Assembly: GCA_964448705.1 (NCBI GenBank)
Contig: CAYUZS010000003.1
Location: forward strand, 73,384 to 137,383
Direction: 5' to 3'
Length of the DNA: 64,000 bases
Origin: an uncultured Gammaproteobacteria bacterium
GTDB lineage: Bacteria; Patescibacteriota; Microgenomatia; UBA12405
A program made the position numbers and the translations under genes. The notes under the pieces were generated by a model that had not been told where the DNA came from, ran no database searches, and saw nothing but the letters and a program-made list of their open reading frames with translations. How positions within the stretch are numbered: position 1 is the stretch's first letter; each line of letters opens with the position of its first letter. This document shows positions 45,042-63,303 of the stretch, piece by piece.

Positions 45042-46196
45042 ATGCTTTCAACCTTCTTCAAATCATCTCCATCCAAACCAATCGACTTTTCTTTTTTTCC
45101 CTCCTTAAATCAAAATCTTTTTATCCATTCCACCCCTTTTTTTCTAACAAATAAATCAATTGTAAAAAATCGTTTACTAGAACTGCATCAAACAATGTCT
45201 CAATTTCACCTGGCTCAGGCAAAAATTGCCTACTCATTCAAAACCAATTACGACGTCGCCAAAAATATCAGATTTGACATGGCTGAAGTTGTTTCTCAAA
45301 GAGAATTAAAAATGTCACTCCATAATCACTACCATTATTCACAAATTATTTTTAATGGACCAAACAAAGGCAATTTTCTTCCACTTTTGTACCGTCCAAT
45401 CACTCTCAACCTTGACCATTTTTCTGAAATTGAAAATCTTCCTCCATACTCCTCAAAAATAACCGCTAAAATTGGTCTCCGTTTTAACTCACTCTCCTCA
45501 CCTAGTCGTTTTGGCTTCAATCTTGAAAACGGCCAAGCCAGCCAAGCATTTTCTCTTTTAAAACAGAAAAAATACCCCCTTTCCGGAATCCACTTTCATC
45601 TTGGCAGCGATATTCAAAACTCTGACCTCTATCAGCAATGTTCTCTGGCCATTTCTTCCTTCATCAAAAAACACCATCTCTTTGCTGACCTTGTTTATAT
45701 CGACTTTGGTGGTGGTTTTCCCTCACACGGTTTAATCCACCAAACCGACATCCAATCTTTACCAAAGATATCGAATTATATTAATAGTATCGTTCAACCA
45801 CTGTCCAAAATTGTTGATTTTTCTAAGACAGAAATTATTCTGGAACCCGGTAGATATTTAGTCGACGACTCAACTGTCATGATAACCAAAGTTCTTAGCA
45901 CTATTGAAACTAGTAACCATCAGTTAATTACTGTCGATGCTGCAAACACTATGTTGCCCTCAACATGGTATCGACGCCATCTAATCAAAAATTTATCTGC
46001 GAATAATAACTTTAAAACTATAGAAACAATTATTTATGGCAGCAGCTGCCAGGAAACAGACATTTTATATCGCGGAAAATTCCAAAAGGTTTCTATTGGA
46101 GACCTTCTTGTTTTTTATTGTGTTGGTGCCTACAATCAAAGTCAAACTTCTTCGTTTATTTTTAATAAACCCAAAACCTATTTTATATATGACTAA
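45042..46196 (+). CDS. Fold-type III PLP-dependent decarboxylase (DAP/Orn decarboxylase-like)
   Basis: AYSFKTNY (Lys-containing), GIHFHLGSD, EPGRYLV and YGSSCQETD match family conserved boxes. The likely start is an internal Met near 45194. Confidence 0.55.
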   Translation: MLSTFFKSSPSKPIDFSFFPSLNQNLFIHSTPFFLTNKSIVKNRLLELHQTMSQFHLAQAKIAYSFKTNYDVAKNIRFDMAEVVSQRELKMSLHNHYHYSQIIFNGPNKGNFLPLLYRPITLNLDHFSEIENLPPYSSKITAKIGLRFNSLSSPSRFGFNLENGQASQAFSLLKQKKYPLSGIHFHLGSDIQNSDLYQQCSLAISSFIKKHHLFADLVYIDFGGGFPSHGLIHQTDIQSLPKISNYINSIVQPLSKIVDFSKTEIILEPGRYLVDDSTVMITKVLSTIETSNHQLITVDAANTMLPSTWYRRHLIKNLSANNNFKTIETIIYGSSCQETDILYRGKFQKVSIGDLLVFYCVGAYNQSQTSSFIFNKPKTYFIYD

Positions 46197-46950
46197 AAGA
46201 TTTAATCACCACTATTTTACCCTCCTCTCTGTTATGACCAAAACAGAGTTTATGAGCCGTTACAAAAGGGCTATTTTTGGTTTTCTATGGTTGTTTCTTA
46301 ACCCACTCTTTCAAATGCTAATCATCGGTACTGTCTTCTCTCACTTTATTAGTCTTCCAAACTACTATTTGTTCCTCTTTGGAGGTCTCCTTTTATGGCA
46401 GTTCTTTTCCTCCTCAATCACCAAATCAACCTATAGCTTTGTTTCTAACCGAAATCTGCTTCAAAAAACTCCTTTTCCTTTAGAAATAATCCCTATCTCT
46501 ATTATTCTTGCTGATTATATTAATCTACTCTTTTCCCTTCTGCTTTTTCTAACGACCACCGCCTTTGTAACTGGTCTCTCCTTAAAAGCTCTCTTGATTA
46601 TTCCCATTCTGCTATGGCTGCTGACTTTCTCAGTTGCTTTCTCCTTAATCACTTCTACTCTTAATGTTCGTTTCCGCGATACCAACTTTTTTGTTAACAC
46701 TCTTCTCATGCTTTGGTTTTATGCCACTCCCATCCTCTATCAAACCAACAGTCTACCTGGGTTTCTACAAAAATATCTGATTATCAATCCTTTGGCTTCA
46801 CTTTTCTCCCTATTTCATTATATTTTCTTTAATGCTCCTTTTCCAAACACTATTCTTATAATCACTAATCTTTTTACCACCATTGTAATCTTATTTTTAG
46901 GTATTTTTCTTTTCCGAAAAAATTACTCCTATTTTGTTGATTGGTTATAA
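46189..46950 (+). CDS. ABC-2-type transporter permease (Wzm/TagG-like polysaccharide exporter)
   Basis: The N-terminal EFMSRYKRAIFGFLWLFLNPL sequence is followed by 6 TM helices. The start is re-set to the Met at 46189; the ORF track started at 46036. Confidence 0.7.
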   Translation: MTKRFNHHYFTLLSVMTKTEFMSRYKRAIFGFLWLFLNPLFQMLIIGTVFSHFISLPNYYLFLFGGLLLWQFFSSSITKSTYSFVSNRNLLQKTPFPLEIIPISIILADYINLLFSLLLFLTTTAFVTGLSLKALLIIPILLWLLTFSVAFSLITSTLNVRFRDTNFFVNTLLMLWFYATPILYQTNSLPGFLQKYLIINPLASLFSLFHYIFFNAPFPNTILIITNLFTTIVILFLGIFLFRKNYSYFVDWL

Positions 46951-47956
46951 AACTATGTCAAAAGTTATTAAAATAAAACATTTATCCAAAAAATATTCTC
47001 TTCATTCTTCAAAACCCACTTTGATTGAACAGTTAAACCCAAAAGATAAAATTTACTGGGCTCTTAAAGACATTAACCTTACTGTAGAATCCGGAGAACG
47101 TGTCGGTTTTTTTGGTCCAAACGGTGCTGGTAAAACTACTCTACTCAAAATAATTTCCCACATTACCACTCCTGCTTCAGGAACAGTCACCACTAGTGGA
47201 AAAATAATTTCTCTAATTGAATTAACCGCTGGTTTTGACCAAGAGCTTACCGGTTATGAAAATATCAAACTTCAATTGGCACTTATGGCCGATTTCAATC
47301 AGGACCAAACCTCTCAGGTTATTTCAGACTGTATAAATTTTTCGGAACTATCAGATTTTATTCATCAACCGCTTTATACCTATTCCTCCGGTATGATTCT
47401 TCGTCTGGCTTTTTCGATTGCAACAGTCATTCCTGCTGATATTTTCATCGTTGACGAATTTTTGGCAGTTGGGGACACCGAATTTAAAAGTAAATGTGCC
47501 GAATATTTCAATCAACTTAAACTAAGTCATAAGACTATTCTTGCCTCCTCTCACGATCTTCAATGGCTGATTTCTTTTTGTGATAAGGTATACCCTATCA
47601 ATCATGGTCGCCTTGATCGGGAAAATTTTGTCACCCCCCAACATCTGGAATTCTTTCGGCGATCCCTCCAAAAAAACAGTTCTTCTGTCACGGTTACTAC
47701 CGGCAGTATGCTACCAACTCTTAATATTGGTCAGGTTGTTCCAATTAAAAATATCTCTTTCTCTAAAATAAAACCCGGCGACATTATTGCCTTCATGTTT
47801 ACCAATTTTCCTCAACCTATTGTTCATCGGGTAATCGCCATTGGCATCAACAACCGCCAACCTATTTTAGTTACCAAAGGAGACGCCCACAGCCAACCGG
47901 ACTCCTGGATGGTCACCAAAAAAGAATATCTTGGAATTATTCAATTTAATCACTAA
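46934..47956 (+). CDS. ABC transporter ATP-binding protein (Wzt/TagH-like) fused to C-terminal S26 signal-peptidase-like domain
   Basis: The Walker A motif GPNGAGKTT, the signature YSSGMILRL, the Walker B motif IFIVDEF and the H-loop SSHD are present. The C-terminal ~110 aa carry GSMLPTL (SPase box B Ser), GDIIAF, HRVIA (His in place of the catalytic Lys, as in ER/archaeal-type SPases) and KGDAHSQPDS (box E-like). Confidence 0.65.
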   Translation: MLIGYKTMSKVIKIKHLSKKYSLHSSKPTLIEQLNPKDKIYWALKDINLTVESGERVGFFGPNGAGKTTLLKIISHITTPASGTVTTSGKIISLIELTAGFDQELTGYENIKLQLALMADFNQDQTSQVISDCINFSELSDFIHQPLYTYSSGMILRLAFSIATVIPADIFIVDEFLAVGDTEFKSKCAEYFNQLKLSHKTILASSHDLQWLISFCDKVYPINHGRLDRENFVTPQHLEFFRRSLQKNSSSVTVTTGSMLPTLNIGQVVPIKNISFSKIKPGDIIAFMFTNFPQPIVHRVIAIGINNRQPILVTKGDAHSQPDSWMVTKKEYLGIIQFNH

Positions 47957-48914
47957 GTCTGTCCTTTATTTTCACATACATTGTCTCCCAAAACTCGCCT
48001 AACTTTTCAGCACTTTTCCTTATTCCTAGCCGAAGTTTCATCTCTGGAAATATCTTTTCAGTCATTTTTTCTTTCTTCCGTGAAATTTTCATTCTTTCAA
48101 AAACATCCGCCCTTTGTTTACAGGAAGAACATACCCCGCAAGGATACTTGTTTCCATTTGTACAGCTCCAAGTCTTTTCCAAAGGCAGACAATATTTTTT
48201 TCCCATTTCTACCACCTCTTCTTTTTCCATCCAGTTTCCAAACTGAGGCTCAAAAAATAGTGAATAATATTCAAAATTGGTATCGTCTCCAATCTCCCGA
48301 ATCAAATCTTGATATAACCTAATTCGGCTTAATGTCTGGCCTTTTATGGTTAACCCGTCAGTCGGTAATATCGCGGTTAAAATTGTCTTTACGGTTATAT
48401 CGTACCGGTATTTCAAATAAAAAGAATATTGTAATGCATAAATTGGGTATTGATAGAGAATATCCGGCAATAACCAAAACGACATCTTATTATTTACTAC
48501 TTGTGACAATAAATATTTATGATGAAAAAATTTTCCTGGTTTAATCATCCTGTATTCTTCCAAAATATTAGCAGGATAGGTATAAACATCCATTTCTTTT
48601 ACCGGCCAACTTAAACCCGGATATTTTTTTTGAAAATATTTATCAAAAAATTTCACCGATCTAGTGCTACCATTAAGGTTACCTCTCGTATATTTCTGTC
48701 TAATATAAACCGGATACACTTTTGTTCCATTACAAAGTAGATATTCCCATAACACAGTCGAGTCGATGCCTCCGGAAACCAACAGTATCGCCTCGTCCAA
48801 ATTCAAGTAATCTTTTAAGTTTCTATTTATTTCACTTTTATCAACTTTTTCAATCGGATTATCTTTTAACCTCTTTCGAAATTCACTTGAAGAAATCCTT
48901 GCTATTTGATTCAT
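47946..48914 (-). CDS. QueC-like PP-loop ATP pyrophosphatase (7-cyano-7-deazaguanine synthase family)
   Basis: The SGGIDS PP-loop is present. The C-terminal TWSCTNGNKYPCGVCSSCKQR matches the QueC Zn-binding CxxC..C tail. No other que genes were seen in the window. Confidence 0.55.
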   Translation of the reverse strand: MNQIARISSSEFRKRLKDNPIEKVDKSEINRNLKDYLNLDEAILLVSGGIDSTVLWEYLLCNGTKVYPVYIRQKYTRGNLNGSTRSVKFFDKYFQKKYPGLSWPVKEMDVYTYPANILEEYRMIKPGKFFHHKYLLSQVVNNKMSFWLLPDILYQYPIYALQYSFYLKYRYDITVKTILTAILPTDGLTIKGQTLSRIRLYQDLIREIGDDTNFEYYSLFFEPQFGNWMEKEEVVEMGKKYCLPLEKTWSCTNGNKYPCGVCSSCKQRADVFERMKISRKKEKMTEKIFPEMKLRLGIRKSAEKLGEFWETMYVKIKDRLSD

Positions 48915-49186
48915 TTTTCTTCTCTAATTATCCCAGTTTTAATACCTTTTTTCAAAAAAGACTTCACATCTTCCCTCGCCTCATCTTTTTCCACCTTATA
49001 GTGTTTATATAAAAAACTAACCATTTCTTCGATACTTTTTGGACTAACCAACAACTTCCATAAATCCACTGCCGTCCCTGAAAGAATCGTAATTCTCGAC
49101 TCACCTTCCACCGCAATCAACACCTCATCATTTCGATACTCGGAATAACATTTCTCCACCTTAACAAAAACATCCCTATCTCTCAT
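48911..49186 (-). CDS. PqqD-like peptide-binding protein (RiPP recognition element)
   Basis: The 91-aa protein has TAVDLWKLL...SIEEMVSFLYKHYKVEKDEAREDVKSFLKKGIKTGII, which fits the PqqD-family pattern (winged-helix RRE). A strong RBS (AAAGGATGGG) precedes it. Confidence 0.6.
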   Translation of the reverse strand: MRDRDVFVKVEKCYSEYRNDEVLIAVEGESRITILSGTAVDLWKLLVSPKSIEEMVSFLYKHYKVEKDEAREDVKSFLKKGIKTGIIREEK

Positions 49187-49201
49187 GTTTTCCCATCCTT
49201 T

Positions 49202-49309
49202 TTATCTCGCACAAGCACAGGACGCACAGACACATGATCCATCGGGACACTGTTTGGGTGTTTCTCCACCACATGCCAAAACAGAATTTAAAGAAATCAC
49301 TTTAATCAT
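49202..49309 (-). CDS. Unannotated 35-aa Cys-rich small peptide MIKVISLNSVLACGGETPKQCPDGSCVCASCACAR (candidate RiPP precursor)
   Basis: I found this by manual translation of the minus strand. It is absent from the ORF track because it is under 60 aa. It has six Cys in the C-terminal 23 residues after a hydrophobic leader-like N-terminus. It ends 15 nt upstream of the PqqD-like gene start. Confidence 0.4.
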   Translation of the reverse strand: MIKVISLNSVLACGGETPKQCPDGSCVCASCACAR

Positions 49310-49396
49310 CGGTTTTTGATAATCATTCCTATTTTGTTGCACCATAAAATAAATATACAAAAACCTTATCTTAAATGCAAATACCAGTTCTAATTT

Positions 49397-52697: not shown

Positions 52698-52946
52698 TCA
52701 CAGCTGGAATTGTCGGGTGTATCTTACCGGTCGGACATCTATCACTTCCCTCCCGGTTATCTTATCAATATAAGGTCCCGATACTGACGGACAACAACTT
52801 TCTCTGAAAGTTCCCATATCAATTGTGATTATCTCTTTCAGTGAAATATCGAAATTTTTTTGGCCCTGTTGTAAAGCTCTTAAATGAATCTCCGTTAGAC
52901 AATTTCCTAACGTTTGTTTGCATATTTCACATTTTTCAATTTTCAT
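52698..52946 (-). CDS. Hypothetical small Cys-containing protein (CEICK...CCP)
   Basis: The call rests on the ORF only. Confidence 0.25.
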   Translation of the reverse strand: MKIEKCEICKQTLGNCLTEIHLRALQQGQKNFDISLKEIITIDMGTFRESCCPSVSGPYIDKITGREVIDVRPVRYTRQFQL

Positions 52947-52959
52947 ATTTTTGATTAAT

Positions 52960-53400
52960 TTATAATTTATTTTCTCTCGCTGAAATAAAAAATTTTCCTT
53001 TCTCCACCTTACTTCCCTGCATCACCGTTAATACCCCTTTATCAGTCCGTAAACACATTACCTCCGTAGTTTCATCTTCTTTAATTTTACCCCTAGTTTC
53101 ACAATATTCTTTATAATTTTTCCAGTCTTGTATTTTCCCCCCGATTTTTTTCCCGGTTAATCTTTTTATATATTCAAAAGTATCTTTCCTCATTTCACAA
53201 AGACTGCAATTAGGTTCCATTCCTCCGGCGAACGGACAAATCTTTCTCGGTACCTCTCCCCTTAAAACCGGACACTGTCCCAATACAAAATTTCTCGAAT
53301 CGAGGGCATCTTCATTTTCCATATATCTTAATACTTGATTTACACCTTCAATCGGCAGTGTTAAACAGTTAATTTCTATTGTTCGGCGGAATGTTGACAT
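52960..53400 (-). CDS. Hypothetical Cys-rich protein (CPVLRG...CPFAGG...CSLC)
   Basis: The ORF has a tight arrangement with its neighbours (4-nt overlap with the next gene). Confidence 0.25.
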   Translation of the reverse strand: MSTFRRTIEINCLTLPIEGVNQVLRYMENEDALDSRNFVLGQCPVLRGEVPRKICPFAGGMEPNCSLCEMRKDTFEYIKRLTGKKIGGKIQDWKNYKEYCETRGKIKEDETTEVMCLRTDKGVLTVMQGSKVEKGKFFISARENKL

Positions 53401-54545
53401 TACTGACCTCCCCCTGCAGAGATTTTTTTATATGTTTCATTTTTTATTTCCAAATATCTTTGCCTGCTGGCTGCGTTCGCGGCAGCAATCGCATTTCTTA
53501 CCTCTCTTGGAGTCATCGATAAGTCAGGTGATCCGCTAATTTCACCCAATAATCTGTATGTTGTATAAAGATTCAACCAGGATGCCGTCTGGATTGCTCC
53601 TGCCAAACCGGTAATTGCCAGCATTGGAATTGCCGTTCCTGCAACCAAATTTGCCTGTTGAGCCATCACTATCGATCTTGAAGCTGCTGCCATTGCCTGT
53701 ACTGCTGCCGTGTCAAACATATCTGTCGCAGTTGCCTGCAGCACTCCTTTAATCGCTTCATTTGATTCCTTAGCCATTATCGGTATTTTTGACAGCCTGG
53801 TTTTTTCCCTAACAATTTCTTTCGCTATCTCACTTACACTTCTATCCCCCATAGATAATGCCGCTATCATACCCTGTCCTAATTTAGAAAGGTTGTCCTG
53901 AATCTCTTTTACTTCTTTGTCCATACCTAATTGTTTATCATATTTATCGGCATTATCCGCCAATTTTGATCCGCTAGATTTTATTATTTTTCCTGCCGTT
54001 TCCAACATTTTTCCATTTCTCTCCACTGCCCTATCCAAACTGGTCATATTTTGCAATACTGCTTTTTTACTATCGGCCACCACCTTTACTAAATCCACCC
54101 AAGGTTCAAATATTATCGGATATTCTTTGGCTATCTTAGCCATATTTGAGCTACCTCTCTGTTTTGCCAGCGACTCACAAATCTCAAATGCTATTCTCGA
54201 TCTCTCTACCAAATCCTTATTCGGATCCATCACTTTTATCAAATCTTTAGTTGCCACACTCAAATCCACCGCTAAATTTCCACCGGCAATATTAACCTCT
54301 AAACATGTCTTAATTAAAGTCGCATAATAACTGCCGGATAATGCACTGGTATCTAATCCTGTTCCCAAACCCAGATTGGCCATTTCTTTAATCACCCACT
54401 GTTTCTGTTCAAACGTTTCTCTCGGTCCTCCGAATTTTTCAATTTCCTTGCTCTCAATCATTTGATCCCGCAAACTCAGCGCCACATTTTGCACCGGAGC
54501 CGGCTCCACAGTACGATTTCTTAATCTCTCAATAAAATTTGGCAT
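53400..54545 (-). CDS. Hypothetical protein with C-terminal hydrophobic segment
   Basis: The 381-aa protein has a long alpha-helical body and the VAGTAIPMLAITGLAGAIQ TM-like segment near its C-terminus. Confidence 0.3.
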   Translation of the reverse strand: MPNFIERLRNRTVEPAPVQNVALSLRDQMIESKEIEKFGGPRETFEQKQWVIKEMANLGLGTGLDTSALSGSYYATLIKTCLEVNIAGGNLAVDLSVATKDLIKVMDPNKDLVERSRIAFEICESLAKQRGSSNMAKIAKEYPIIFEPWVDLVKVVADSKKAVLQNMTSLDRAVERNGKMLETAGKIIKSSGSKLADNADKYDKQLGMDKEVKEIQDNLSKLGQGMIAALSMGDRSVSEIAKEIVREKTRLSKIPIMAKESNEAIKGVLQATATDMFDTAAVQAMAAASRSIVMAQQANLVAGTAIPMLAITGLAGAIQTASWLNLYTTYRLLGEISGSPDLSMTPREVRNAIAAANAASRQRYLEIKNETYKKISAGGGQ

Positions 54546-54689
54546 TTTTATTTTTAATCAATAATTTTTAATTTCTAAAAAAAGTCGAAAAAAGGAGGAG
54601 GAAAGTGAAAGTTGGGTTTGGGTTGGGTTTTTGGTGTTTCGGTTTTGTTTGCTTTTTGTTTAATCCCCCCGGAGGGGGTTTCCCCCCTC

Positions 54690-55076
54690 CTAGCCTCCAT
54701 CCAGTCCTTGCAGCCACTCCCTGACGGGGGTGACCAAGAATGCTAAATTCTCAATCGCCAGCAGGGTCAATAAAGCCATGCTGACAAACCAGATCCCCAT
54801 CATCGATAAGATAATGGCGGCACAAACCAACAACACTTCGAGTGCAGATAAGAATCTGCTACTTTCGAAGGCCGCCAATGTGGCAACAACTGCCAGTAGT
54901 ACCATCGCCAGTACGTTCGTTTCCTCCGATGTACCAATCAGGTACATCGAAAAAAACAGTAAACCCGCTTGAATTATATTTTTTAACATTTTAAATTCCC
55001 TTTCTTTTCCCAAAAATCCCCTTTCGAGGTTAATCCAAACCAATTCCAATATATTTTTGGCGCTGGTTTGGACCAA
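54690..55076 (-). CDS. Small two-TM membrane protein (VirB2/TrbC pilin-like topology)
   Basis: The 128-aa protein has two long hydrophobic helices. The resemblance to pilins is topological only. Confidence 0.25.
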   Translation of the reverse strand: MVQTSAKNILELVWINLERGFLGKEREFKMLKNIIQAGLLFFSMYLIGTSEETNVLAMVLLAVVATLAAFESSRFLSALEVLLVCAAIILSMMGIWFVSMALLTLLAIENLAFLVTPVREWLQGLDGG

Positions 55077-55245
55077 CCTCTATCCTTTTTTCGACTTGTT
55101 AAAGTTCTCCCTCTCGGGATATAAAAAAAGCCCCACTCCACCCGGCGCATTACCGAATTTCGTTTAAGGCTTCTGATTGTTTCAAACAACTGCTTTCAGC
55201 ATCTTTCTGAAACATAAGGAAATATACACCACCAATACACACAAG

Positions 55246-56319
55246 TCAATCGTCCAAGCTTACTCTTCTACCCGCTATATAATTCACCGCAGGTGAATAG
55301 AAATACCTGTCATAATAATCCAACATTGCCCCAGACCAACCGGACATAACCAATTGACTAAACGCTTTTAAATTATCTCCACCAATCTTATTGCTAACAC
55401 CAGAATTATAATTTTCAGAAAAGTAGGTAGCTAGCTGTGCTGAAATTAACGCTGTCTTTTCAATAAAAGGCACATATACTCTCTTCATATTCTTAATCAT
55501 ATCGGCAGCCAATCCAGCATTTGTCCTTACCTTTTTTCCTGGTTCAAATTTCTTCCACCCCCATTCTGGATAGGTCGCCCCTCCCAGTCTCCCTTCAACC
55601 AGGGCAGAAAAAGTACTAGTCCGTGACCAGTAACCGCCAGTTGTCCCATCCTCATCTACCAGACCTCCTCCATGAAAACCTCTCTTAATTTTCGAAGCTT
55701 CATTAAGAATGAATAAACCGCCGGCAAAACTGTCCGTCAGATTTCCGACTTTATTCCATTGAGATAAACCCATATCCCGGTTATAAAAAAACAATGGCGA
55801 ATAACCTCTCGTCCATGTCGGATATTTATTCAGATTTATATCTTCTTTGCCAGTCGGCACCACCATAATGTCTGCCATCCTCCAACCATTGCCTATCTCT
55901 ATTGTTGGAGACATCTGATGTAATTGGTATTCTTTTCCATTAACCACCCTTGTTGTTAACATGTTAGATTCAATAACTGGATCTAAAGTAAACCTAGTCG
56001 TCAATTCTCGATTATTAAACGCCCTCCACATATTAGTCACTTCAAATTTTGAATAATCACCCCACTGCGAAATTAACTTTGAAGTTCTTGCCATCCAGGC
56101 AGAGTATTTTGAGGTATCACTAAACAAACTCTTCTCGCTTACTATCTTAACACCCTTAAAAGCACCTTTCCTATCAAACTTAACCAGTGGATTGTCATCA
56201 ATCATTTTTGGAATCAATCCACTGGCCATCAAAAAGACCAATGGGCTTCGGCTAACTAATTCATTTCGACGTTCAATCATATTTAATTCAACCCCTTTGG
56301 ATTTTTTCTCTAGAAACAA
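55246..56319 (-). CDS. Hypothetical protein
   Basis: The 357-aa protein is Trp/Gly-rich and has no known motif. Confidence 0.3.
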   Translation of the reverse strand: MFLEKKSKGVELNMIERRNELVSRSPLVFLMASGLIPKMIDDNPLVKFDRKGAFKGVKIVSEKSLFSDTSKYSAWMARTSKLISQWGDYSKFEVTNMWRAFNNRELTTRFTLDPVIESNMLTTRVVNGKEYQLHQMSPTIEIGNGWRMADIMVVPTGKEDINLNKYPTWTRGYSPLFFYNRDMGLSQWNKVGNLTDSFAGGLFILNEASKIKRGFHGGGLVDEDGTTGGYWSRTSTFSALVEGRLGGATYPEWGWKKFEPGKKVRTNAGLAADMIKNMKRVYVPFIEKTALISAQLATYFSENYNSGVSNKIGGDNLKAFSQLVMSGWSGAMLDYYDRYFYSPAVNYIAGRRVSLDD

Positions 56320-56559
56320 TTACTCCTCCCAGTTTCAAAGCCGCTTGAACCACTGGTCCATATCCACCTTTTACCACTGACTCCACTACTGGCATTTTGC
56401 TTTTTCCTGCCGGGAAAAAATGTCCGGCTTCAGCTTCAATTTCTGCCATTTGTCTACCAGTCGGATACATTCCTTCTTTTGGTTTCATTTTTTTATTTGA
56501 TTAAATATTAATTTAATAAATTTCCAAACGACAACCTGCAAAACAATTTTTCCACCACT

Positions 56560-57250
56560 AGGCGGCTCTTTTTTTTCTTTTTCCACATACTGTGGGGGAA
56601 GGCTTTCGCCCCCCCCACATATACCCTACCGTGGGGTTCCGTCAAATGACGGAGAATCCCACTGGAGCGACCCTAGTCCATTTCGGTCGGCCTCCTTTTG
56701 GGCCCCCCGAATATCAGGAGACTCACCGAGCTCTATCTCTCGGCATCGAGAAAAAAATTTGCAACGGGAGCAATGACCTTCCGGCTGCTGACACTCGCTC
56801 GGTGAAGGTGGTTGTTGAAACACTAACATTTTGCCACCTTGCCCTGGGTAACGCCTTTCCGACGTCGTAGTCGGTTTTCTTCTTTTTTCTTTTGATTTTC
56901 TTTCTGTTTCTTGTCGCTTTTACACATTTGAAGCCCCTTTCTTTTGGTCGAGGAGACCCGATCTTTTTCACCTTCCCCTATGGAAGTGAAACCTCGAAAA
57001 ATCCGTTTCTACGAACTTTTCGAGGCCCACTTCTACTCCCTGCCCGAGTTTTGGGAAGGGTTGGGAAAGAGTTAGAGAAGGGTTAATTTAGTTTTGCAGG
57101 TTGTTAAAGTGCAACCCGGCTAGGCCGGATTTGCCATCCGCCGATGAGGCGGAAGTTTCTCGACTTCAACAGTCCCGCATTCATTGTTTCCATACCGCTT
57201 TTGGTAATCGGCGGTACTGCTGTTTCGAATTAGACTTATAATATCACACT
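56560..57250. ncRNA. GC-rich noncoding island; candidate large structured RNA (RNase P RNA-like motifs weakly present)
   Basis: GC content rises sharply in an AT-rich genome, with multiple GC hairpins such as tgtggggg...ccccccaca. The short motifs GGTAACGCC, GAAGTGAAAC and GCAACCCGGCTAG echo RNase P conserved regions in the right order. Only short overlapping ORFs occur on both strands. I could not identify the RNA class. Confidence 0.25.
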
Positions 57251-57465
57251 ATCATGAATATTCAATACACATAAGAGCGCATTCTGCTCTTATGTAATTT
57301 ATGTGAGATTATACGAAAAAAATAGTTTTTATCCCCCACCAGATTCCTTACAGATTTTTCTGTTGCCTCTATAAACTTAACTCCCGTTTTCATTTTTCAG
57401 ACTAACACATTTTCTAATAATCATACAATATGAAAATAAACACCATCTTTAATATATAATTAACC

Positions 57466-59694
57466 ATGTCTTCTAATTCTGCCTTCACTTTCATGGAAGT
57501 CCGTCTTCCACAAGACAACGAAACTACTCTCGAATCCATGTCCTCTCTCTTGTCCAACTTTACTCAATTTGCCAAACTCAGTTTTTGGGAAAAATTATCC
57601 GGCAAACATTCTCTGGTAGCTTCTCTTGAAGTTGTCCTTATCAACGGTCAAATTCATTTTTATGTTGTCGTCCCCGTCCAAAATTACGATTTCTTTCGTT
57701 CCCAAATTCTCGCCCAATACCCCTCCGCCGTCATCAAAGAATCAAATAATTATTTAATTGACGCAGCAAACAATTTTTCGGAGCACAGCGAACGCGAAGT
57801 TCAATCTCCATCGAACAAGCCCGAAGGTAGCGAGCACCGCAAAAATTTGTTTGCCAGTCAATTAGCTTTAGCCCGCCCATACTCCTATCCCCTCAAAACC
57901 GCCCGTGATTTCCGAGATACCGACCCTCTCTCTTCAGTTCTGGCTCCCCTTTCCCGTTCCACTTCTTCCTCCGATTTTTTTCTCTATCAAATTTTAATCA
58001 GCAATGCTCCTAAAAATTGGCAGGGTAGTATTATTTCCGTCATTCAAAATGGAGTTTTAGTCGACAAAGAAAAAAATTTCCGTCAGGCCCATCCCGACAA
58101 ACAAGTTTTTGAAACCAAAATTCAGTTCCCCGGTCTGTTAACCCAGATCAATATTCTTTCCAATAATCCCACTCTCATCAGTTCGGTCTCCTCCTCTTTT
58201 GGAATCTACACCAGTCCTCGGGGCAATTTTATTCGTACCGTCTCTCCCGGTCTTTTTACCCGTAAAAAAATTCTCAAATCAATTGAAAATCGCCAGTTAA
58301 CCATCAACACCCAAGTTCTAAACACTGAAGAACTGGCTGTTCTTTGGCATTTTCCCAATCAACTCACCAAACTTCCCAACATCGCTTGGGGTAAAAAACT
58401 CTACGCCGATCCGCCGGAAAATCTGCCGGTAGCCACCGGTCTTAGTGATGAAGAAAAATCTCATCTCACCTTTTTTGGCAAAACAGAATTTCATAATCAG
58501 GAAACTATTTTCGGTATCAAAGAGGGTGAAGACCGCCGTCGACATACTTATATTATCGGTAAAAGTGGTACCGGAAAATCAACTTTAATTGCCAACATGG
58601 CTATTGATGACATCCGCAAGGGCCGTGGTGTCGCTATTATCGATCCTCACGGAGACCTTTGCGACAACATCCTCAACTATATTCCCGCCTCCCGCCTCAA
58701 CGATTGCTGTTATTTCAATCCCGCTGATCCCGACTATGTTTATCCTCTAAATGTTTTGGAAGCCAAAAATGAATCTCAGGCAGAACTGGTGGCTTCCGGA
58801 GTTCTTTCTATTTTCAAAAAACTTTACGGCAATTCCTGGGGTCCCCGATTGGAATATATTTTAAGAAATGCCATTCTTACCCTGGTCTTCACCCCGGGTT
58901 CGGACATGACCCATATCGTCGAGATTCTTACCAACAAAGTCTTTCGCGCCAAAGTAGTCGATCAGCTTAAAAATCAAACTCTCAAAAATTTTTGGCTCAA
59001 CGAATACAATGTCATGGATGAAAAGTTCCGGGTGGAAACAATTTCTTCGATCCTCAACAAAGTTGGACAATTTATTGCTTCATCTAATATCAGAAACACC
59101 GTTGCCCACGCTCATTCCAAAATCAATATTGAAGAAATAATGAATCAAAAAAAGATTCTTATTGCTGATTTATCCTCCGGAAAATTAGGTGAAGACAACT
59201 CTGCTCTTCTCGGCGCCATGCTGATTACTCAAATCCAGTTGGCCGCCATGAATCGGGTGTTCCAATCTCAGGACGAACGCTCTGATTTTTACCTCTATGT
59301 TGACGAGTTTCAAAATTTCGCCACCGAAGCCTTTATTAAAATTCTCTCTGAAGCCCGCAAGTTCAAACTTAATCTTATTGTCGCCAATCAGTATATGAGT
59401 CAGCTGGACCGAACCATTCAGGATGCCATTTTTGGCAACGTCGGCTCTTTCCTTTCTTTTGTCGTCGGCAACCAGGATGCTTTTATTCTTCAAAAAGAGT
59501 TTGGCACCAAATTCCCCGCCGAAGATCTGGTTAAAATCGGCAAGTACCAAATAATTTGCAAACTCAGCATTGATTCCGAAACCACCCAGCCGTTTTATGC
59601 CACCACCCTGCCTCCTCTGGATTGCAAAAACCAACAAAAGGATAAACTGATCAAAGTTTCTCAGGAACGTTGGGGAAAGAAAAAGAATTCATAG
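57466..59694 (+). CDS. FtsK/HerA-superfamily P-loop ATPase (VirB4/TraC- or HerA/DUF87-like)
   Basis: The Walker A motif IIGKSGTGKST is mid-protein, followed by IIDPHGDL, the Walker B motif LYVDEFQNF and ARKFKLNLIVANQYMSQL (the conserved Gln of FtsK/HerA/VirB4/VirD4 ATPases). There are no N-terminal TM helices. Confidence 0.5.
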   Translation: MSSNSAFTFMEVRLPQDNETTLESMSSLLSNFTQFAKLSFWEKLSGKHSLVASLEVVLINGQIHFYVVVPVQNYDFFRSQILAQYPSAVIKESNNYLIDAANNFSEHSEREVQSPSNKPEGSEHRKNLFASQLALARPYSYPLKTARDFRDTDPLSSVLAPLSRSTSSSDFFLYQILISNAPKNWQGSIISVIQNGVLVDKEKNFRQAHPDKQVFETKIQFPGLLTQINILSNNPTLISSVSSSFGIYTSPRGNFIRTVSPGLFTRKKILKSIENRQLTINTQVLNTEELAVLWHFPNQLTKLPNIAWGKKLYADPPENLPVATGLSDEEKSHLTFFGKTEFHNQETIFGIKEGEDRRRHTYIIGKSGTGKSTLIANMAIDDIRKGRGVAIIDPHGDLCDNILNYIPASRLNDCCYFNPADPDYVYPLNVLEAKNESQAELVASGVLSIFKKLYGNSWGPRLEYILRNAILTLVFTPGSDMTHIVEILTNKVFRAKVVDQLKNQTLKNFWLNEYNVMDEKFRVETISSILNKVGQFIASSNIRNTVAHAHSKINIEEIMNQKKILIADLSSGKLGEDNSALLGAMLITQIQLAAMNRVFQSQDERSDFYLYVDEFQNFATEAFIKILSEARKFKLNLIVANQYMSQLDRTIQDAIFGNVGSFLSFVVGNQDAFILQKEFGTKFPAEDLVKIGKYQIICKLSIDSETTQPFYATTLPPLDCKNQQKDKLIKVSQERWGKKKNS

Positions 59695-59711
59695 TGTAGT
59701 AGAATAAATTT

Positions 59712-59912
59712 ATGAACGATAAAGTCAATTCTGAAGCCATTCCCTACAACCCTAATCAAATAGAACCTCAAATCATTGATCCTCACACCATTGGTCGTAT
59801 ATCTGCAGCTACCCGTGTTTTTGAGACAGTCCCTGTCAACACTAGAGAGATAATCGATCGTGCTGCTGCCAAAACTGCCCTAGAACAGATCAAAAAACAA
59901 AGGTCAGGCTAA
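59712..59912 (+). CDS. Hypothetical small protein
   Basis: The call rests on the ORF only. It immediately follows the ATPase gene. Confidence 0.2.
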   Translation: MNDKVNSEAIPYNPNQIEPQIIDPHTIGRISAATRVFETVPVNTREIIDRAAAKTALEQIKKQRSG

Positions 59913-60057
59913 TTTTTTGTCAACACATTTTCTCTAAAGTAGGAATTTTTTCCCCAACCCTCAAATTATATCCTTTAGCCGGCCTCAAAGAAATTCCTTG
60001 ATTTAACTTTCTTCTCTTTTCATAATCACCCTACATTACATATTAACTAAGTAAATT

Positions 60058-60276
60058 ATGGCCACTTCCAATGCTGAACTTATAGAAAGATTAAATCAAA
60101 CCGGTTCACATATTGTCAATTCTAAAAAAGAAGCCTGTTCTATTTGTCCTTCACTTCCTATTTGCCGTAAGGTTCGTTCCTGTGAACATGTCAGAATTGA
60201 ACCTGGTGATCGAACATGTCTTGAAACTTTAAAATCCGAAGAAGAAACTTCACTTTATAAAAAAATAAAACGCTAG
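60058..60276 (+). CDS. Hypothetical small Cys-containing protein (CSICPSLPIC...C..H)
   Basis: The call rests on the ORF only. Confidence 0.2.
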   Translation: MATSNAELIERLNQTGSHIVNSKKEACSICPSLPICRKVRSCEHVRIEPGDRTCLETLKSEEETSLYKKIKR

Positions 60277-60897
60277 TCTAAATTTGCCTCTTGACACATC
60301 TTATAAGACATCCTATATTTAATTATTACTAATTAAATAATTCACATGTCAGAAAAAAAGTTCACTCCTGAATCGGCAGTGAAACCTACCTCGGCATCTC
60401 TGCCGGAAACCATAAAGATCGTAGAATCAGGCGATAAACTAGGGATAGCCATTAGGAAAATTATTCCTCTTGATGCCACTCCGGAAGAACTCCAGATCCT
60501 AGACTTGATACTTAATAATTAATCAACCTATATAAATATGCCAGAAAAATTTATAGCCCCTAAAACTTTTTATAAGATAGAATCTCCTACTAGGATTGAT
60601 TTGGAAGTTATTTCTCCCAAACCTAATTTTAGCGGAGAAATTCAAATTCGTTTGCCCGCCGATAAAAAATAAGTTATTTTTTCAAAAAACTATGGCAGAT
60701 TGCAAAGAATTTAACTCCATGTTCGCTGTCGAGGGTAGTTTAAAAACCTGTGGAGTGTGCAGTAAAATAAATGACTGTCAGCTCCCAATGGCACTTCAGA
60801 GGAAGCCATCTATGGAACGCAGTCTCAAACTTCCTAAGCAGGAAAAAGATTTTTACCCTCAATATCCTAACAAAAATCACTAATTTTCGTTAACAGC

Positions 60898-62895: not shown

Positions 62896-63303
62896 CTATT
62901 GTAAACTGTGTGTCAAGTCGGTCATTTCCAATAAAGGTACTGCTCCGTTTTTAATCAGATAATTTGTCATTCGTGAATTTTCATCAATAATCCTTCCCGG
63001 CACTGCCCATACTTCTTTCCCTAGATCTAAAAAACATTTGGCTGCCAATATGGTTCCGCTTTTCAAACTTCCTTCAATTACTACCAACAAATCGGAATAA
63101 TTAGCCAAGTCATTATTTAATTTTTCAAAATTATCCCCCTTAAACACTTTATCCGCTCCTAATCGGACCACTTCCCGGTTACAGCCGGCCACTAAAATTG
63201 TCACCACCTCCGCTTTATCTTTCAGCTCCTTCATCACCATCCCGATTACTGTTTTCCCGTAAGGACTCATCCTCCGACTCCCTATTATCGCCACCCGTTT
63301 CAT
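62896..63303 (-). CDS. Minimal DprA/Smf-like (SLOG/Rossmann) protein
   Basis: AIIGSRRMSPYG and LLVVIEGSLKSGTILAAKCFLDLGKEVWAVPGRI match the DprA Rossmann-domain ends. The central GIDAAAH segment is absent. It shows the classic dprA-topA adjacency. Confidence 0.45.
   Translation of the reverse strand: MKRVAIIGSRRMSPYGKTVIGMVMKELKDKAEVVTILVAGCNREVVRLGADKVFKGDNFEKLNNDLANYSDLLVVIEGSLKSGTILAAKCFLDLGKEVWAVPGRIIDENSRMTNYLIKNGAVPLLEMTDLTHSLQ

Follow-up and report, generated by a model that had tools for sequence, protein, structure and literature searches.

A core VirD4-like ATPase gene and its variable neighbours between rpsB and topA in a Shapirobacteria-type Patescibacterium

Genes and features of the region

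The region described here occupies positions 52698-60890 of the window, the whole stretch of 64,000 nucleotides that was analysed. Its host is an ultra-small (CPR) bacterium, a Shapirobacteria-type Patescibacterium. The features are collected in Table 1, where loci of other genomes carry the prefix L. The ORFs named in the original prediction, which was made from the letters alone, are all present at approximately the right coordinates, but several details changed. Protein E has 344 rather than 357 residues, a supposed 95-aa ORF at 60596-60883 is two genes (K44 and L63), and the tiny ORFs placed on the opposite strand are on the plus strand, co-directional with the ATPase gene. At least five small Cys-rich proteins are encoded (A82, B146, ORFb, I72 and L63) where two small CxxC proteins had been counted, and the GC-rich island of ~0.7 kb that was thought to be noncoding contains a structured RNA, ORFa and the conserved ORFb.

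Table 1. Positions of genes and other features in the window
Feature	Position	Strand	Description
A82	52698-52946	-	Small Cys-rich protein (C6-x2-C9-x6-C16); final gene of the left cargo, adjoins rpsB
B146	52960-53400	-	Cys-rich protein, 146 aa, 7 Cys including a CxxC
C381	53400-54545	-	Charged near-orphan; single C-terminal hydrophobic, TM-like segment (residues 300-318)
D	54690-54989	-	Small polytopic membrane protein with two long hydrophobic stretches; probably 99 aa (start ATG 54989; ORF reaches 55076)
Promoter and leader of D	54990-55249	-	TTGACT-17-TATATT at 55249-55221, 10/12 matches (promoter scan)
E	55246-56280	-	Soluble protein of a rare family, 344 aa
F66	56288-56488	-	Small protein immediately upstream of E; gene call on an independent assembly
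ORFb	56626-56829	-	Unannotated 67-aa Cys4 mini-protein (C13-x6-C20-x2-C23-x5-C29)
ORFa	56823-56927	-	Mini-ORF of 34 codons, rich in Lys and Arg, located between the RNA and ORFb
Structured RNA (leader or sRNA)	57094-57231	-	Covariation-supported
Candidate promoter, RNA/cargo transcript	57238-57265	-	TTGAAT-16-TATTAT, extended -10 TG (consensus scan)
ATPase	57466-59694	+	742 aa, soluble TrwB/VirD4-like P-loop ATPase, N-terminal DUF8128
H66	59712-59912	+	Small unique protein
I72	60058-60276	+	Small Cys-rich protein (C27-x2-C30-x5-C36-x5-C42)
Conserved promoter	60280-60345	+	TTGACA-17-TATATT at 60291-60319, overlapping palindrome TATTTAATTATTACTAATTAAATA; immediately before J58
J58	60346-60522	+	Fast-evolving mini-protein downstream of the conserved promoter
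K44	60538-60672	+	44-aa mini-protein; gene call on L082
L63	60692-60883	+	63-aa Cys-rich protein (CGVCSKINDC); gene call on L082

The ATPase belongs to the VirB4/VirD4/HerA superfamily, as predicted and as confirmed by Pfam, a phmmer search of the PDB and Foldseek. It matches TrwB_AAD_bind at 30 bits (cut-off 20.5) and DUF87 at 24.3 bits, just over the cut-off, and its N-terminus is annotated as DUF8128 (PF26449, precomputed annotation). TrwB is its sole PDB sequence match (3e-5), while the Foldseek structure matches are TrwK/VirB4, HerA, DotL and TrwB at 1e-7 to 1e-5. Both Walker motifs (A, GKSGTGKST; B, YLYVDEF) are preserved, and a search for a TM segment found none, which leaves the protein without a membrane anchor. 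It is probably a hexameric, NTP-driven translocase.

The left cargo proteins are near-orphans, and no protein of the block other than the ATPase gave a convincing match in Pfam, NCBIfam, PHROGs or PADLOC. Among 5.8 billion proteins, C381 retrieved itself and one homologue at 70% identity, and E, by word-index search, itself and one at 84%. Both of these sole homologues lie on the sister contig (genome L085), in the same order and beside rpsB. An exhaustive HMMER search added seven relatives of E at 27-42% identity. The AF2 model of E (pLDDT 77.5, pTM 0.81) had no PDB or BFVD match at E < 0.07 in Foldseek, a PDB sequence search with C381 found nothing, and a pattern scan of IMG/VR did not find the E family. 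Conservation of E in the sister genome (84%) is close to that of the core proteins (84-91%); judged by sequence, E is therefore kept by purifying selection rather than decaying. The same genome has A82 at 55%, B146 at 74% and a partial match to F66 at 38-50%, and there the body of gene D is replaced. Gene D is flanked by an 18-nt inverted repeat, and a homologue with 50% identity adjoins a serine recombinase in L004, L005 and L012. The promoter and leader of D are ~73-85% identical in DNA to L004, L010 and L027, although the neighbouring genes are not conserved.

Farther away, similarity is mostly positional. A82 is 28% identical to a protein of 82 aa that takes its place in L010, and the L010 analogue of B146 (189 aa) has a Cys pattern that is similar by eye. 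The analogues of C381 in L088, L092 and L010 have 399-421 residues and a hydrophobic tail, with undetectable sequence similarity. BLAST matched none of B, C and D to their positional analogues, and the likeness is one of size, order and hydrophobicity only.

The RNA folds into a closing stem (AAUUC/GAAUU), a hairpin (UACCGC/GCGGUA), two GAAACAG loops and a long helix, GCGGGACUGUUGAAG/CUUUAACAACCUGC, around variable hairpins. Its covariance model matches 13 loci, six of them outside the training set (E 4e-11 to 7e-5), and all lie upstream of the ATPase gene on the opposite strand. In the alignment, 91.7% of cells are paired, compared to 31-46% in slid controls; eight pairs show double changes, and the minus strand folds more stably in 11 of 12 sequences. 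A search of Rfam gave no match, and the RNA is previously undescribed. Upstream of it, ~25 loci share a TATAAT box and its flanking AATACACA, which is consistent with a promoter. The position of ORFa is filled by 47-aa counterparts in L050, L092, L010 and L021, but it is uncertain whether the window copy is coding, since it is shortened and diverged. The ORFb family HMM finds 17 distinct loci besides the contig of the window, each beside the ATPase gene (about seven with E between 1e-9 and 6e-6), and such Cys4 proteins adjoin the ATPase gene, on either side, in at least 16 species.

On the right, the promoter before J58 is the best match of the region (11/12). Its DNA is 77-91% identical in ~26 species, in each of which it lies between the ATPase gene and topA. 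The J58 position is held by a family of 55-80 aa in 13 loci; the window copy is weakly similar, with 36% identity to L006 and, by eye, an N-terminal peptide in common with L050. The K44 family occurs in 15 loci (iterated HMM; window copy E 5.6e-14), with 48% identity to L084. Homologues of I72 with 38-47% identity occupy the corresponding slot in L010, L050 and L092. Neither H66 nor L63 has a homologue among the loci compared.

A core gene between variable slots

The ATPase has 6939 homologues, of which the best 120 are 71-84% identical and carry Shapirobacteria or Microgenomates names; among ~70 Shapirobacteria-type species identity is 62-84%. Synteny was compared in 76 species-level loci (81 locus records at the time of the gap counts). 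Upstream of the ATPase gene, rpsB was found in 39 of the 81 records at 175-9166 bp, and downstream topA was found in 67 at 7-2782 bp. The position is the same in the 76 species loci, in the order rpsB, ATPase, topA, and in most relatives the ATPase gene stands alone between the other two. Since this order is kept even where the gaps shrink to 175 bp and 7 bp, the ATPase gene is a core gene of the lineage and not cargo. Between the window and L092, the ATPase is 71% identical, comparable to rpsB (71%), topA (67%) and frr (77%), while E is only 27% identical.

It had been proposed that the whole 8-kb block was inserted between conserved neighbourhoods. This does not hold for the ATPase gene, which is conserved like rpsB, topA and frr at one position in ~70 species and lies between rpsB and topA in relatives; a gene order conserved in relatives, which had been named as grounds for refutation, applies to this gene only. 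The flanking genes are lineage-specific, absent from most relatives and, as expected, without a housekeeping role.

Both slots beside the ATPase gene are variable. Clustering of their 313 ORFs gave 256 clusters, including 230 singletons, and there is a strong strand bias; a search of the 76 species loci gave no match to B, C, E, F, H, J or K. Other species carry TA pairs, a type IIG RM system, AbiE, M23 peptidases and serine recombinases in these slots. The cargo of the window is absent from L084 (ATPase 80% identical), the next-nearest genome with upstream sequence; the record of L083 (82%) is without such sequence. Very distant versions of the cargo occur in L092 and L010, in the same order and slot. 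In many species, the ATPase gene is accompanied by the divergent unit of RNA and Cys4 protein and by the downstream promoter with mini-proteins.

We consider it reasonably probable that the region is a VirD4-like core ATPase gene between two hypervariable slots, with a remnant cargo on the left and an array of mini-proteins on the right. In the centre, the ATPase gene would have been inherited vertically, with rpsB (divergent) and topA (convergent) as ancestral neighbours. Nearest to it on the left would be a resident divergent unit, in which a promoter is followed by the ~138-nt RNA leader, ORFa and ORFb, and beyond it the lineage-specific cargo F-E-D-C-B-A. The cargo may be transcribed by read-through from the leader promoter and from the internal conserved promoter before D. 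On the right, H, I, J, K44 and L63 would form a short array of fast-evolving mini-proteins, with J58, K44 and L63 behind a conserved sigma-70-type promoter with a palindromic, operator-like site.

Origin of the cargo and role of the ATPase

The left cargo looks like the fixed remnant of an integrative element, from a module family that is rare and appears to diverge extremely fast. It is read in this way because related modules or slots carry a recombinase that is gone here. The last gene on L088, a contig with E, encodes a large serine recombinase, 48% identical to slot recombinases of L004 and L024, and in L010 a recombinase lies at the distal end of the module. In the window itself, no recombinase was found, and a check of the cargo and block ends for att-like direct repeats gave none that was convincing. 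As no intact, bounded element of this type was seen, mobility and delivery by a recombinase are inferred from the neighbours. Thus the suggestion of a mobile-element remnant survives for the left-hand set and fails for the ATPase gene. The recurrence of the module at the same slot with E at 27% could equally mean that it was inherited vertically from early on, diverged rapidly and was often lost; such a history would suggest that it is functionally tied to the ATPase.

Such a tie is central to an alternative that we regard as rather unlikely, in which the divergent operon RNA-ORFa-ORFb-F-E-D-C-B-A and the downstream mini-proteins are fast-evolving functional partners of the ATPase in a machine that translocates DNA or protein. 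In this machine, which would be specific to these epibiotic bacteria and shaped by an arms race, C and D would sit in the membrane and the Cys-rich mini-proteins would serve as adaptors or substrates. This would explain why the E-type module keeps its slot, order and orientation in the window, the sister genome, L092 and L010, and it fits the Cys4 proteins beside the ATPase gene, the conserved promoters and RNA leader that drive variable genes, and the purifying selection on E. In addition, coupling proteins such as VirD4 and TrwB normally select substrates for a membrane channel. However, the module is missing in most species, including the relative with 80% ATPase identity, and in several species the gap between rpsB and the ATPase gene is just 175-270 bp with ATPase conservation undiminished. 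Moreover, homologues of E occur away from such an ATPase (L089-L091) or with a recombinase (L088), and the ATPase has no membrane anchor.

It is highly improbable that the block derives from a type IV secretion or conjugation system (MPF-FATA-like) that has degenerated, with its other components too diverged to be recognised. The ATPase does fit TrwB, TraD and VirD4 profiles and VirB4/TrwB structures, D recalls PrgI/VirB3 as a small polytopic membrane protein, and three other species have M23 peptidases in the slot. Nevertheless, there is a single ATPase, which in most relatives stands alone, and Pfam, NCBIfam and PHROGs gave no signal of VirB4, VirB6, VirB8, relaxase or hydrolase in the block proteins; VirB3 is likewise undetectable. 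With no component detectable in the block, this part of the original prediction is left without positive evidence. A recent survey reports VirB6 as scarce and possibly highly diverged in Microgenomatia, which speaks for this reading, but it also reports that patescibacterial T4SS clusters lie near dnaA/dnaN and most T4CP homologues are distant from virB4 (PMC12102498).

A HerA- or MADS-like anti-phage system around the ATPase, also raised at the outset, is similarly hard to credit. The P-loop domain has weak PADLOC matches (mad8 63.6 bits, HerA 28.6 bits), DUF87/HerA is barely above its Pfam cut-off, and TA, RM and Abi genes gather in the same slots of other species, but no HerA-type effector partner (SIR2, NurA, DUF4297) or other mad gene is adjacent, and the ATPase gene is vertically inherited and conserved like its ribosomal neighbours, unlike patchily distributed defence genes. 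Serine recombinases are common as phage integrases, and distant members of the ATPase family are found in Bacillus phage G (gp156) and SPO1-like phages (phrog_5156, 4e-63 in PHROGs), but it is very improbable that the left cargo is what remains of a cryptic prophage, in which E would be a structural and D a holin-like protein, as terminase, portal, capsid and tail signals are absent from all cargo proteins, E resembles nothing in BFVD, PDB or IMG/VR by the searches above, and the phage-like matches belong to the core ATPase, not the cargo.

Comparison with known systems

Type IV coupling proteins (TrwB of R388, VirD4, TraD, DotL) share with the ATPase a P-loop NTPase domain and an all-alpha domain, both recognised by TrwB_AAD_bind. 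In place of their N-terminal membrane anchor it has a soluble DUF8128 domain of ~330 aa, and it scores far under the curated TraD/VirD4 equivalog cut-offs (44 vs 366 bits). Whereas coupling proteins are plasmid- or ICE-borne, the ATPase gene is a chromosomal core gene, with no adjoining relaxase or T4SS genes. In Patescibacteria, 5,713 VirD4-like T4CP homologues have been counted in 2,918 genomes, only 148 of them near virB4, and the authors state that exaptation "cannot be ruled out" (Quinonero-Coronel et al. 2025, PMC12102498). The ATPase gene almost certainly belongs to this population of "orphan" homologues; the rpsB/topA synteny, variable flanking slots, RNA and Cys4 mini-protein families are not mentioned in the available text of that paper.

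The best full-length structural matches are the VirB4/TrwK and HerA ATPases, which are likewise soluble, two-domain proteins in which an N-terminal domain precedes a RecA-like ATPase at the C-terminus, although TM-scores are low (0.22-0.29). Unlike them, the ATPase has no CagE_TrbE_VirB Pfam match and no NurA, SIR2 or VirB3 partner. Homology to gp156 of Bacillus phage G and phrog_5156 extends over 60-91% of the length, including part of the N-terminal domain, but at only 20-23% identity.

The slots resemble serine-recombinase integration hot spots or genomic islands in their fixed site between core genes, their presence or absence among close relatives, their content of TA, RM, Abi and orphan genes, and the distal serine recombinases of several species. 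They differ in that the window has neither recombinase nor att repeats, in that both sides of one core gene are hot, and in that the slots hold conserved promoters and a conserved structured RNA, which apparently drive any cargo present.

The ATPase gene and its fixed neighbours

The original prediction described an 8-kb block of genes inserted between the rpsB and topA neighbourhoods. All of the ORFs that it listed were found in the window, and both flanks of the ATPase gene are indeed variable. The ATPase gene itself is not part of any insertion pattern, but lies in a fixed place between rpsB and topA in relatives as well. Coordinates of the features discussed here are collected in the table.

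Features in and near the block (window positions unless a locus is named)
Feature	Position	Strand	Description
Permease and ATPase of RiPP-type cluster	46036-47956		ABC-2 permease and ABC ATPase fused to S26 peptidase-like domain
PP-loop protein of RiPP-type cluster	47946-48914		QueC-like, with CxxC motifs
PqqD-like protein of RiPP-type cluster	48911-49186		
Precursor-like ORF of RiPP-type cluster	49202-49360		52 aa, Cys-rich, ends ...CPDGSCVCASCACAR
Block	52698-60890		between rpsB and topA neighbourhoods
Inverted repeat around gene D	54579-54596 and 55083-55100		18 nt, 94% complementary
GC-richest region	56250-57250		
Perfect inverted repeat	56531-56544 and 57091-57104		14 nt, ACAACCTGCAAAAC / GTTTTGCAGGTTGT, 546 nt apart
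ORFb	56626-56829	minus	Cys4 mini-protein, 67 aa, downstream of RNA
ORFa		minus	Lys/Arg-rich mini-ORF downstream of RNA, 34 aa (47 aa in L050, L092, L010)
Structured RNA	57094-57231	minus	
Candidate RNA promoter	57265-57238	minus	TTGAAT-16-TATTAT with TG, consensus-type
ATPase	57466-59694	plus	742 aa
Right-slot promoter	60291-60319		TTGACA-17-TATATT, overlaps 24-nt palindrome at 60316-60339
K44	60538-60672		member of 44-aa family
dprA	62896-63303		135 aa
Toxin-antitoxin insertion, L004	9411-9963		Phd/ParE-type
Toxin-antitoxin insertion, L010	9364-9892		Phd/ParE-type
Toxin-antitoxin insertion, L084	9417-9984		Phd/ParE-type

A word-index search returned 6939 homologues of the ATPase. The best 120 of these are 71–84% identical over their full length and contain domains PF26449 (DUF8128) and PF10412. 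The window is low in GC, and the closest homologues carry the names Candidatus Shapirobacteria or Microgenomates. In three long contigs the ATPase gene adjoins topA-dprA-PBP2-mreB with its orientation kept, and the rpsB-ward sequence is wholly different. In a sample of 76 loci, taken as one genome per species with rpsB and topA placed by tblastn, the ATPase gene was found with synteny in every case. topA lies downstream of it in 67 locus records (gap 7–2782 bp, median 753) and rpsB upstream in 39 (gap 175–9166 bp, median 1407), and the corresponding gaps in the window are 1204 bp and 4903 bp. Between the window and the relative L092 the ATPase is 71% identical, compared to 71% for rpsB, 67% for topA, 73% for tsf, and 77% for frr. 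These neighbours, gaps, and core-like identities point to an ancestral order in which a leftward rpsB is followed by a rightward ATPase gene and a leftward topA. By synteny and sequence, then, the ATPase gene is a core gene and not an insertion. That it is a core gene flanked by variable slots is very probable, and the composite explanation of the locus is, on balance, favoured.

The dprA of the window is very short, its match to the DNA_processg_A profile being confined to the C-terminal third; it has the same length in L004 and L083, and is 215 aa in L002. Many contigs of this clearly Shapirobacteria-type locus (L013, L014, L015, L021, L075, L076, and others) are deposited under the unrelated names “uncultured Gammaproteobacteria”, “Candidatus Methanoperedens”, “Bacteriovorax”, and “Pseudobdellovibrionaceae”, a sign that the source MAGs were mis-binned or carry placeholder taxonomy. 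A likely RiPP-type peptide cluster (46036-49360) lies beside rseP.

Variable slots and the left cargo

The genes on either side of the ATPase gene are rarely shared. In the 76 species loci, tblastn gave no match to B, C, E, or F of the left cargo (the orphan genes F-E-D-C-B-A on the rpsB side) or to H, J, or K of the right slot (the gap between the ATPase gene and topA), while D matched one species, I two, and A one, weakly. When ORFs with an ATG start and no overlap were counted across the slots of 76 distinct loci, 313 were obtained, which group into 256 clusters, 230 of them singletons. Most upstream-slot ORFs are divergent from the ATPase gene (139 of 172), and most downstream-slot ORFs are co-directional with it (121 of 141). 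A further 105 ORFs from the slots and from loci with E-containing modules were scanned against Pfam and PADLOC, and the majority have no Pfam domain. The remaining matches comprise PIN, Phd, and ParE toxin-antitoxin genes, AbiEi/Eii, a type IIG RM system, DUF4143 ATPases, M23 peptidases, bAvd-like four-helix proteins, and large serine recombinases; these domain-bearing ORFs are typical island cargo. In four species (L032, L036, L030, L047, and other loci) the ATPase-topA gap carries a 120-aa “23S rRNA intervening sequence protein”, which is a bAvd-like four-helix bundle. Such proteins elsewhere accompany diversity-generating retroelements.

The left cargo is found in the window and in one sister genome only. 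C and E each have a single homologue in 5.8 billion proteins (70% identity for C, 84% for E), and both lie on one sister contig (L085-L087) whose gene order next to rpsB is that of the window and whose DNA is 73–85% identical to it. Of the genomes that include upstream sequence, L084 is the next closest (80% ATPase identity), and it does not have the cargo, nor do the other loci of the 76 species; L083 (82% ATPase identity) is missing the sequence upstream of the ATPase gene and is therefore uninformative on this point. This distribution amounts to a presence/absence polymorphism at a fixed chromosomal site. The preferred reading of the left cargo, with about an even chance, is a recombinase-delivered, fixed remnant of a rare integrative-element family that uses the ATPase-rpsB slot. 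In the main rival reading, it would be a long-standing set of partner genes of the ATPase that evolves fast.

Divergence within the window-sister pair is uneven. The core proteins Frr, Tsf, RpsB, and RseP are 84–91% identical, compared to 84% for E, 74% for B, 70% for C, 55% for A, and 35% for ORFb. An exhaustive HMMER search found seven more relatives of E at 27–42% identity. In L092, an E homologue (27%) lies between the ATPase gene and rpsB. Beyond it come genes for a small CxxC protein, a TM protein, a hydrophobic-tailed protein of 421 aa, and one of 186 aa. In L010, the series that runs away from the ATPase gene on the cargo side consists of a toxin-antitoxin pair, a Zn-ribbon protein, ORFa, ORFb, two distant E paralogues, a D-like gene, genes for 362-aa, C-like 401-aa, B-like 189-aa, and A-like 82-aa proteins, and a large serine recombinase. 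In L088, an E-like gene, a multi-TM protein, and a 399-aa protein precede a convergent large serine recombinase, which shares 48% identity with recombinases from the slot upstream of the ATPase gene in L004 and L024; BLAST of C and D against their positional analogues in L088 gave zero similarity. In L089-L091, an E homologue is at another genomic site, flanked by ychF and rpsF, where no ATPase gene is close by.

Recombinases are present in related contexts (L010, L088, L004, L024); in the window, neither a recombinase nor convincing terminal repeats were found. Three slot-associated recombinases searched by tblastn against the whole window gave no match, and of att-like direct repeats only short AT-rich or chance-level ones are present at the cargo ends. 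The att sites of serine integrases share just a few bases, so such sites may be present all the same. No tRNA or tmRNA that could serve as an integration target lies near the block. The predicted structure of E is confident (pLDDT 77.5, pTM 0.81) and has zero matches in PDB and BFVD. Pattern scans gave no member of the E family in IMG/VR and next to none in JGI metagenomes, and a viral-contig scan for the ATPase gave nothing or almost nothing.

Gene D is bracketed by an inverted repeat. Among the cargo genes, it alone has had its body replaced in the sister genome. A homologue (50%) lies beside a serine recombinase in L004. D may be an exchangeable cassette.

Structured RNA, mini-proteins, and resident promoters

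Of the 20 kb whose GC content was profiled, the region just before the ATPase gene is the richest (0.44–0.47, compared to 0.32–0.44 elsewhere in the block). The GC-rich stretch of about 0.7 kb there had been described as noncoding, a label that no longer fits, as it holds a structured RNA, ORFa, and ORFb. BLAST revealed about 100 nt of conserved DNA 200–800 nt upstream of the ATPase gene in several species. The motif GCAGGTTGTTAAAG is found upstream of the ATPase gene, in the same orientation, in about 30 loci, and over all loci it has 42 matches compared to 12 expected. Single-nucleotide indels between species rule out a small peptide as the source of this conservation.

Plain MAFFT alignment misaligned the variable hairpins for RNAalifold, and single-sequence folds with a hand-specified structure were therefore used. 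Folds of 12 versions on the minus strand have a common architecture, with z-scores of −1.5 to −5.6, and in 11 of the 12 the minus-strand energy is below that of the plus strand, in some by 12–18 kcal/mol. A plus-strand RNA or ATPase 5′-UTR was rejected, since both G-U pairing and folding energy speak for the minus strand. A covariance model trained on seven sequences (26 pairs) found six further loci (E 4e-11 to 7e-5). All matches lie upstream of the ATPase gene on the opposite strand, and no second copy was found in the window. In the resulting 13-sequence alignment, 91.7% of cells pair, compared to 31–46% with partners slid, eight pairs are changed on both sides, and shuffles match the observed values in 0 of 500 cases on four of five measures and in 1 of 500 on the fifth; these statistics are support rather than proof, because the sequences are relatives of one another and were aligned to fit the model. 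They support a conserved secondary structure on the minus strand, that of a putative cis-regulatory leader or sRNA.

Rfam 15 at gathering thresholds matched only two tRNAs in the window, and a permissive search (E up to 10) of 56300-57480 gave nothing above 18.5 bits. Over both intergenic regions, both kinds of threshold gave chance-level matches only. A 16-base pattern from the RNA had 15 matches in viral contigs, all chance by the covariance model. A candidate promoter precedes the RNA.

The perfect 14-nt inverted repeat was rejected as a pair of element ends, since it involves the 3′ strand of the long helix of the RNA; the start of F66 is 43 nt downstream of its other arm. The arms could pair over a long range on a read-through transcript, in competition with that helix. 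The repeat is kept in the sister genome, where overall identity is high anyway.

The RNA probably has clade-specific variants. Type B loci (L013, L023, L025, L040, L010) and type C loci (L031, L063, L073) retain the 3′ motif CUUUAACAACCUGC, a TATAAT box, and ORFb upstream of the ATPase gene, and have a different, shorter RNA body that the covariance model misses. Three species carry a Phd/ParE-type toxin-antitoxin pair placed precisely in the gap from the RNA motif to the start of the ATPase gene; its insertion moves the motif from about 200–400 nt to about 800–1200 nt upstream.

An HMM of the ORFb family found 17 distinct loci besides the window’s own contig, about seven of them at E 1e-9 to 6e-6. 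ORFb-type genes always adjoin the ATPase gene, mostly upstream and at times downstream. By eye, A82, I72, and L63 share C-x2-C-x5/6-C-like signatures. The right-slot promoter is the best sigma-70-type match of the region, overlaps a 24-nt palindrome, and is kept between the ATPase gene and topA in about 26 species. It precedes two mini-protein families, J-type (13 loci) and 44-aa (15 loci), the latter including K44 (E 5.6e-14). In L083, the right-slot genes are of the same size with similarity that is not recognisable.

Comparison with known systems

It is unlikely, although worth stating, that the ATPase, the RNA, the Cys4 mini-proteins, and the promoter-equipped slots together form a dedicated Shapirobacteria platform. 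In one version, a soluble translocase might handle diversifying small proteins or the E-D-C membrane proteins for epibiotic host interaction. In the other, resident promoters and the RNA leader might control recombinase-delivered cargo beside the ATPase gene, as an integron-like “expression dock”.

The earlier reading as a degenerate T4SS finds no positive support, as the ATPase is the only T4SS component detectable. The parts sought (MPF-FATA) were a VirB4 signature ATPase, VirB6/PrgH, VirB3/PrgI, VirB8/PrgL, and a cell-wall hydrolase, and A-F and H-L gave none in Pfam, NCBIfam, or PHROGs, although extremely diverged versions could have escaped these searches. Relaxase and virB4-cluster domains were absent from the block proteins (Pfam, NCBIfam), the rest of the window being viewed through the 25 leading Pfam families listed. 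Apart from the ATPase, no block protein has a credible match in Pfam, NCBIfam, PHROGs, or PADLOC, and the block has no prophage hallmark. A HerA-based or MADS defence system is very unlikely, as the block holds no effector or nuclease partner domain (Pfam, PADLOC), no MADS partner lies beside the ATPase, and a gene syntenic in all 76 species loci has the distribution of a core gene rather than the patchy one of such systems.

The ATPase matches Pfam PF10412 (TrwB_AAD_bind) at 30 bits (cut-off 20.5), PF01935 (DUF87) at 24.3 bits over 77 residues only (cut-off 23.2), PADLOC HerA at 28.6 bits, and phrog_5156, to which no function is assigned, at 4e-63. TrwB is its sole PDB sequence match. In its AF2 model (pLDDT 68.6 overall), the N-terminus is a well-modelled soluble alpha/beta domain (pLDDT about 80–90). 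Foldseek matched the model to TrwK/VirB4, HerA, DotL, and TrwB at E 1e-7 to 1e-5, with TrwB and DotL at 1e-5 to 3e-6 and HerA in the same range as VirB4, DotL, and TrwB. Phage G of Bacillus encodes a distant homologue of the whole DUF8128-ATPase, gp156 (JN638751.1 90958-93111), as do the SPO1-like Bacillus phages Shanette, JL, and CP-51; these jumbo and SPO1-like phage homologues are 20–23% identical with coverage up to 91% and are annotated as hypothetical.

Like the coupling proteins VirD4, TrwB, and TraD (T4CP), the ATPase has a RecA-like nucleotide-binding domain, an all-alpha domain, and intact Walker A/B motifs, with GKSGTGK and VDEF invariant across 58 homologues. Unlike them, it has no N-terminal membrane anchor (no 19-residue window of the entire protein reaches Kyte-Doolittle 1.6), its gene lies between rpsB and topA in relatives without relaxase or virB4 neighbours, and it scores far under the curated NCBIfam cut-offs for TraD and VirD4 (TIGR03743, 44 bits, cut-off 366; NF045973, 34 bits, cut-off 250) and for CedD. 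It is a T4CP relative with a predicted T4CP-like working that lacks several typical T4CP features. Its gene almost certainly belongs among the orphan VirD4-like homologues of Patescibacteria treated in PMC12102498, according to which such a homologue is non-essential in S. epibionticum and exaptation of a T4CP “cannot be ruled out”.

Patescibacteria hold thousands of these orphan ATPases with no assigned role, and one large lineage has the gene fixed in its core, with both flanks serving as hot spots for lineage-specific genes. The locus adds a structured RNA, a widespread Cys4 mini-protein family always accompanying the ATPase, conserved promoters before hypervariable genes, and the E family, which has a confident model and no fold relative in the libraries searched. 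If the neighbours are clients or partners of the ATPase, they would suggest the job of an exapted coupling protein in host-dependent bacteria; if they are hitch-hikers only, the locus would serve as a well-defined integration hot spot for studying CPR gene flow. The overall arrangement is that of a chromosomal integration hot spot, an already-known type. Unusually, insertions collect on either flank of a single orphan coupling-protein gene, the variable cargo lies behind resident promoters and a structured RNA, and a family of Cys4 mini-proteins goes with the gene throughout.
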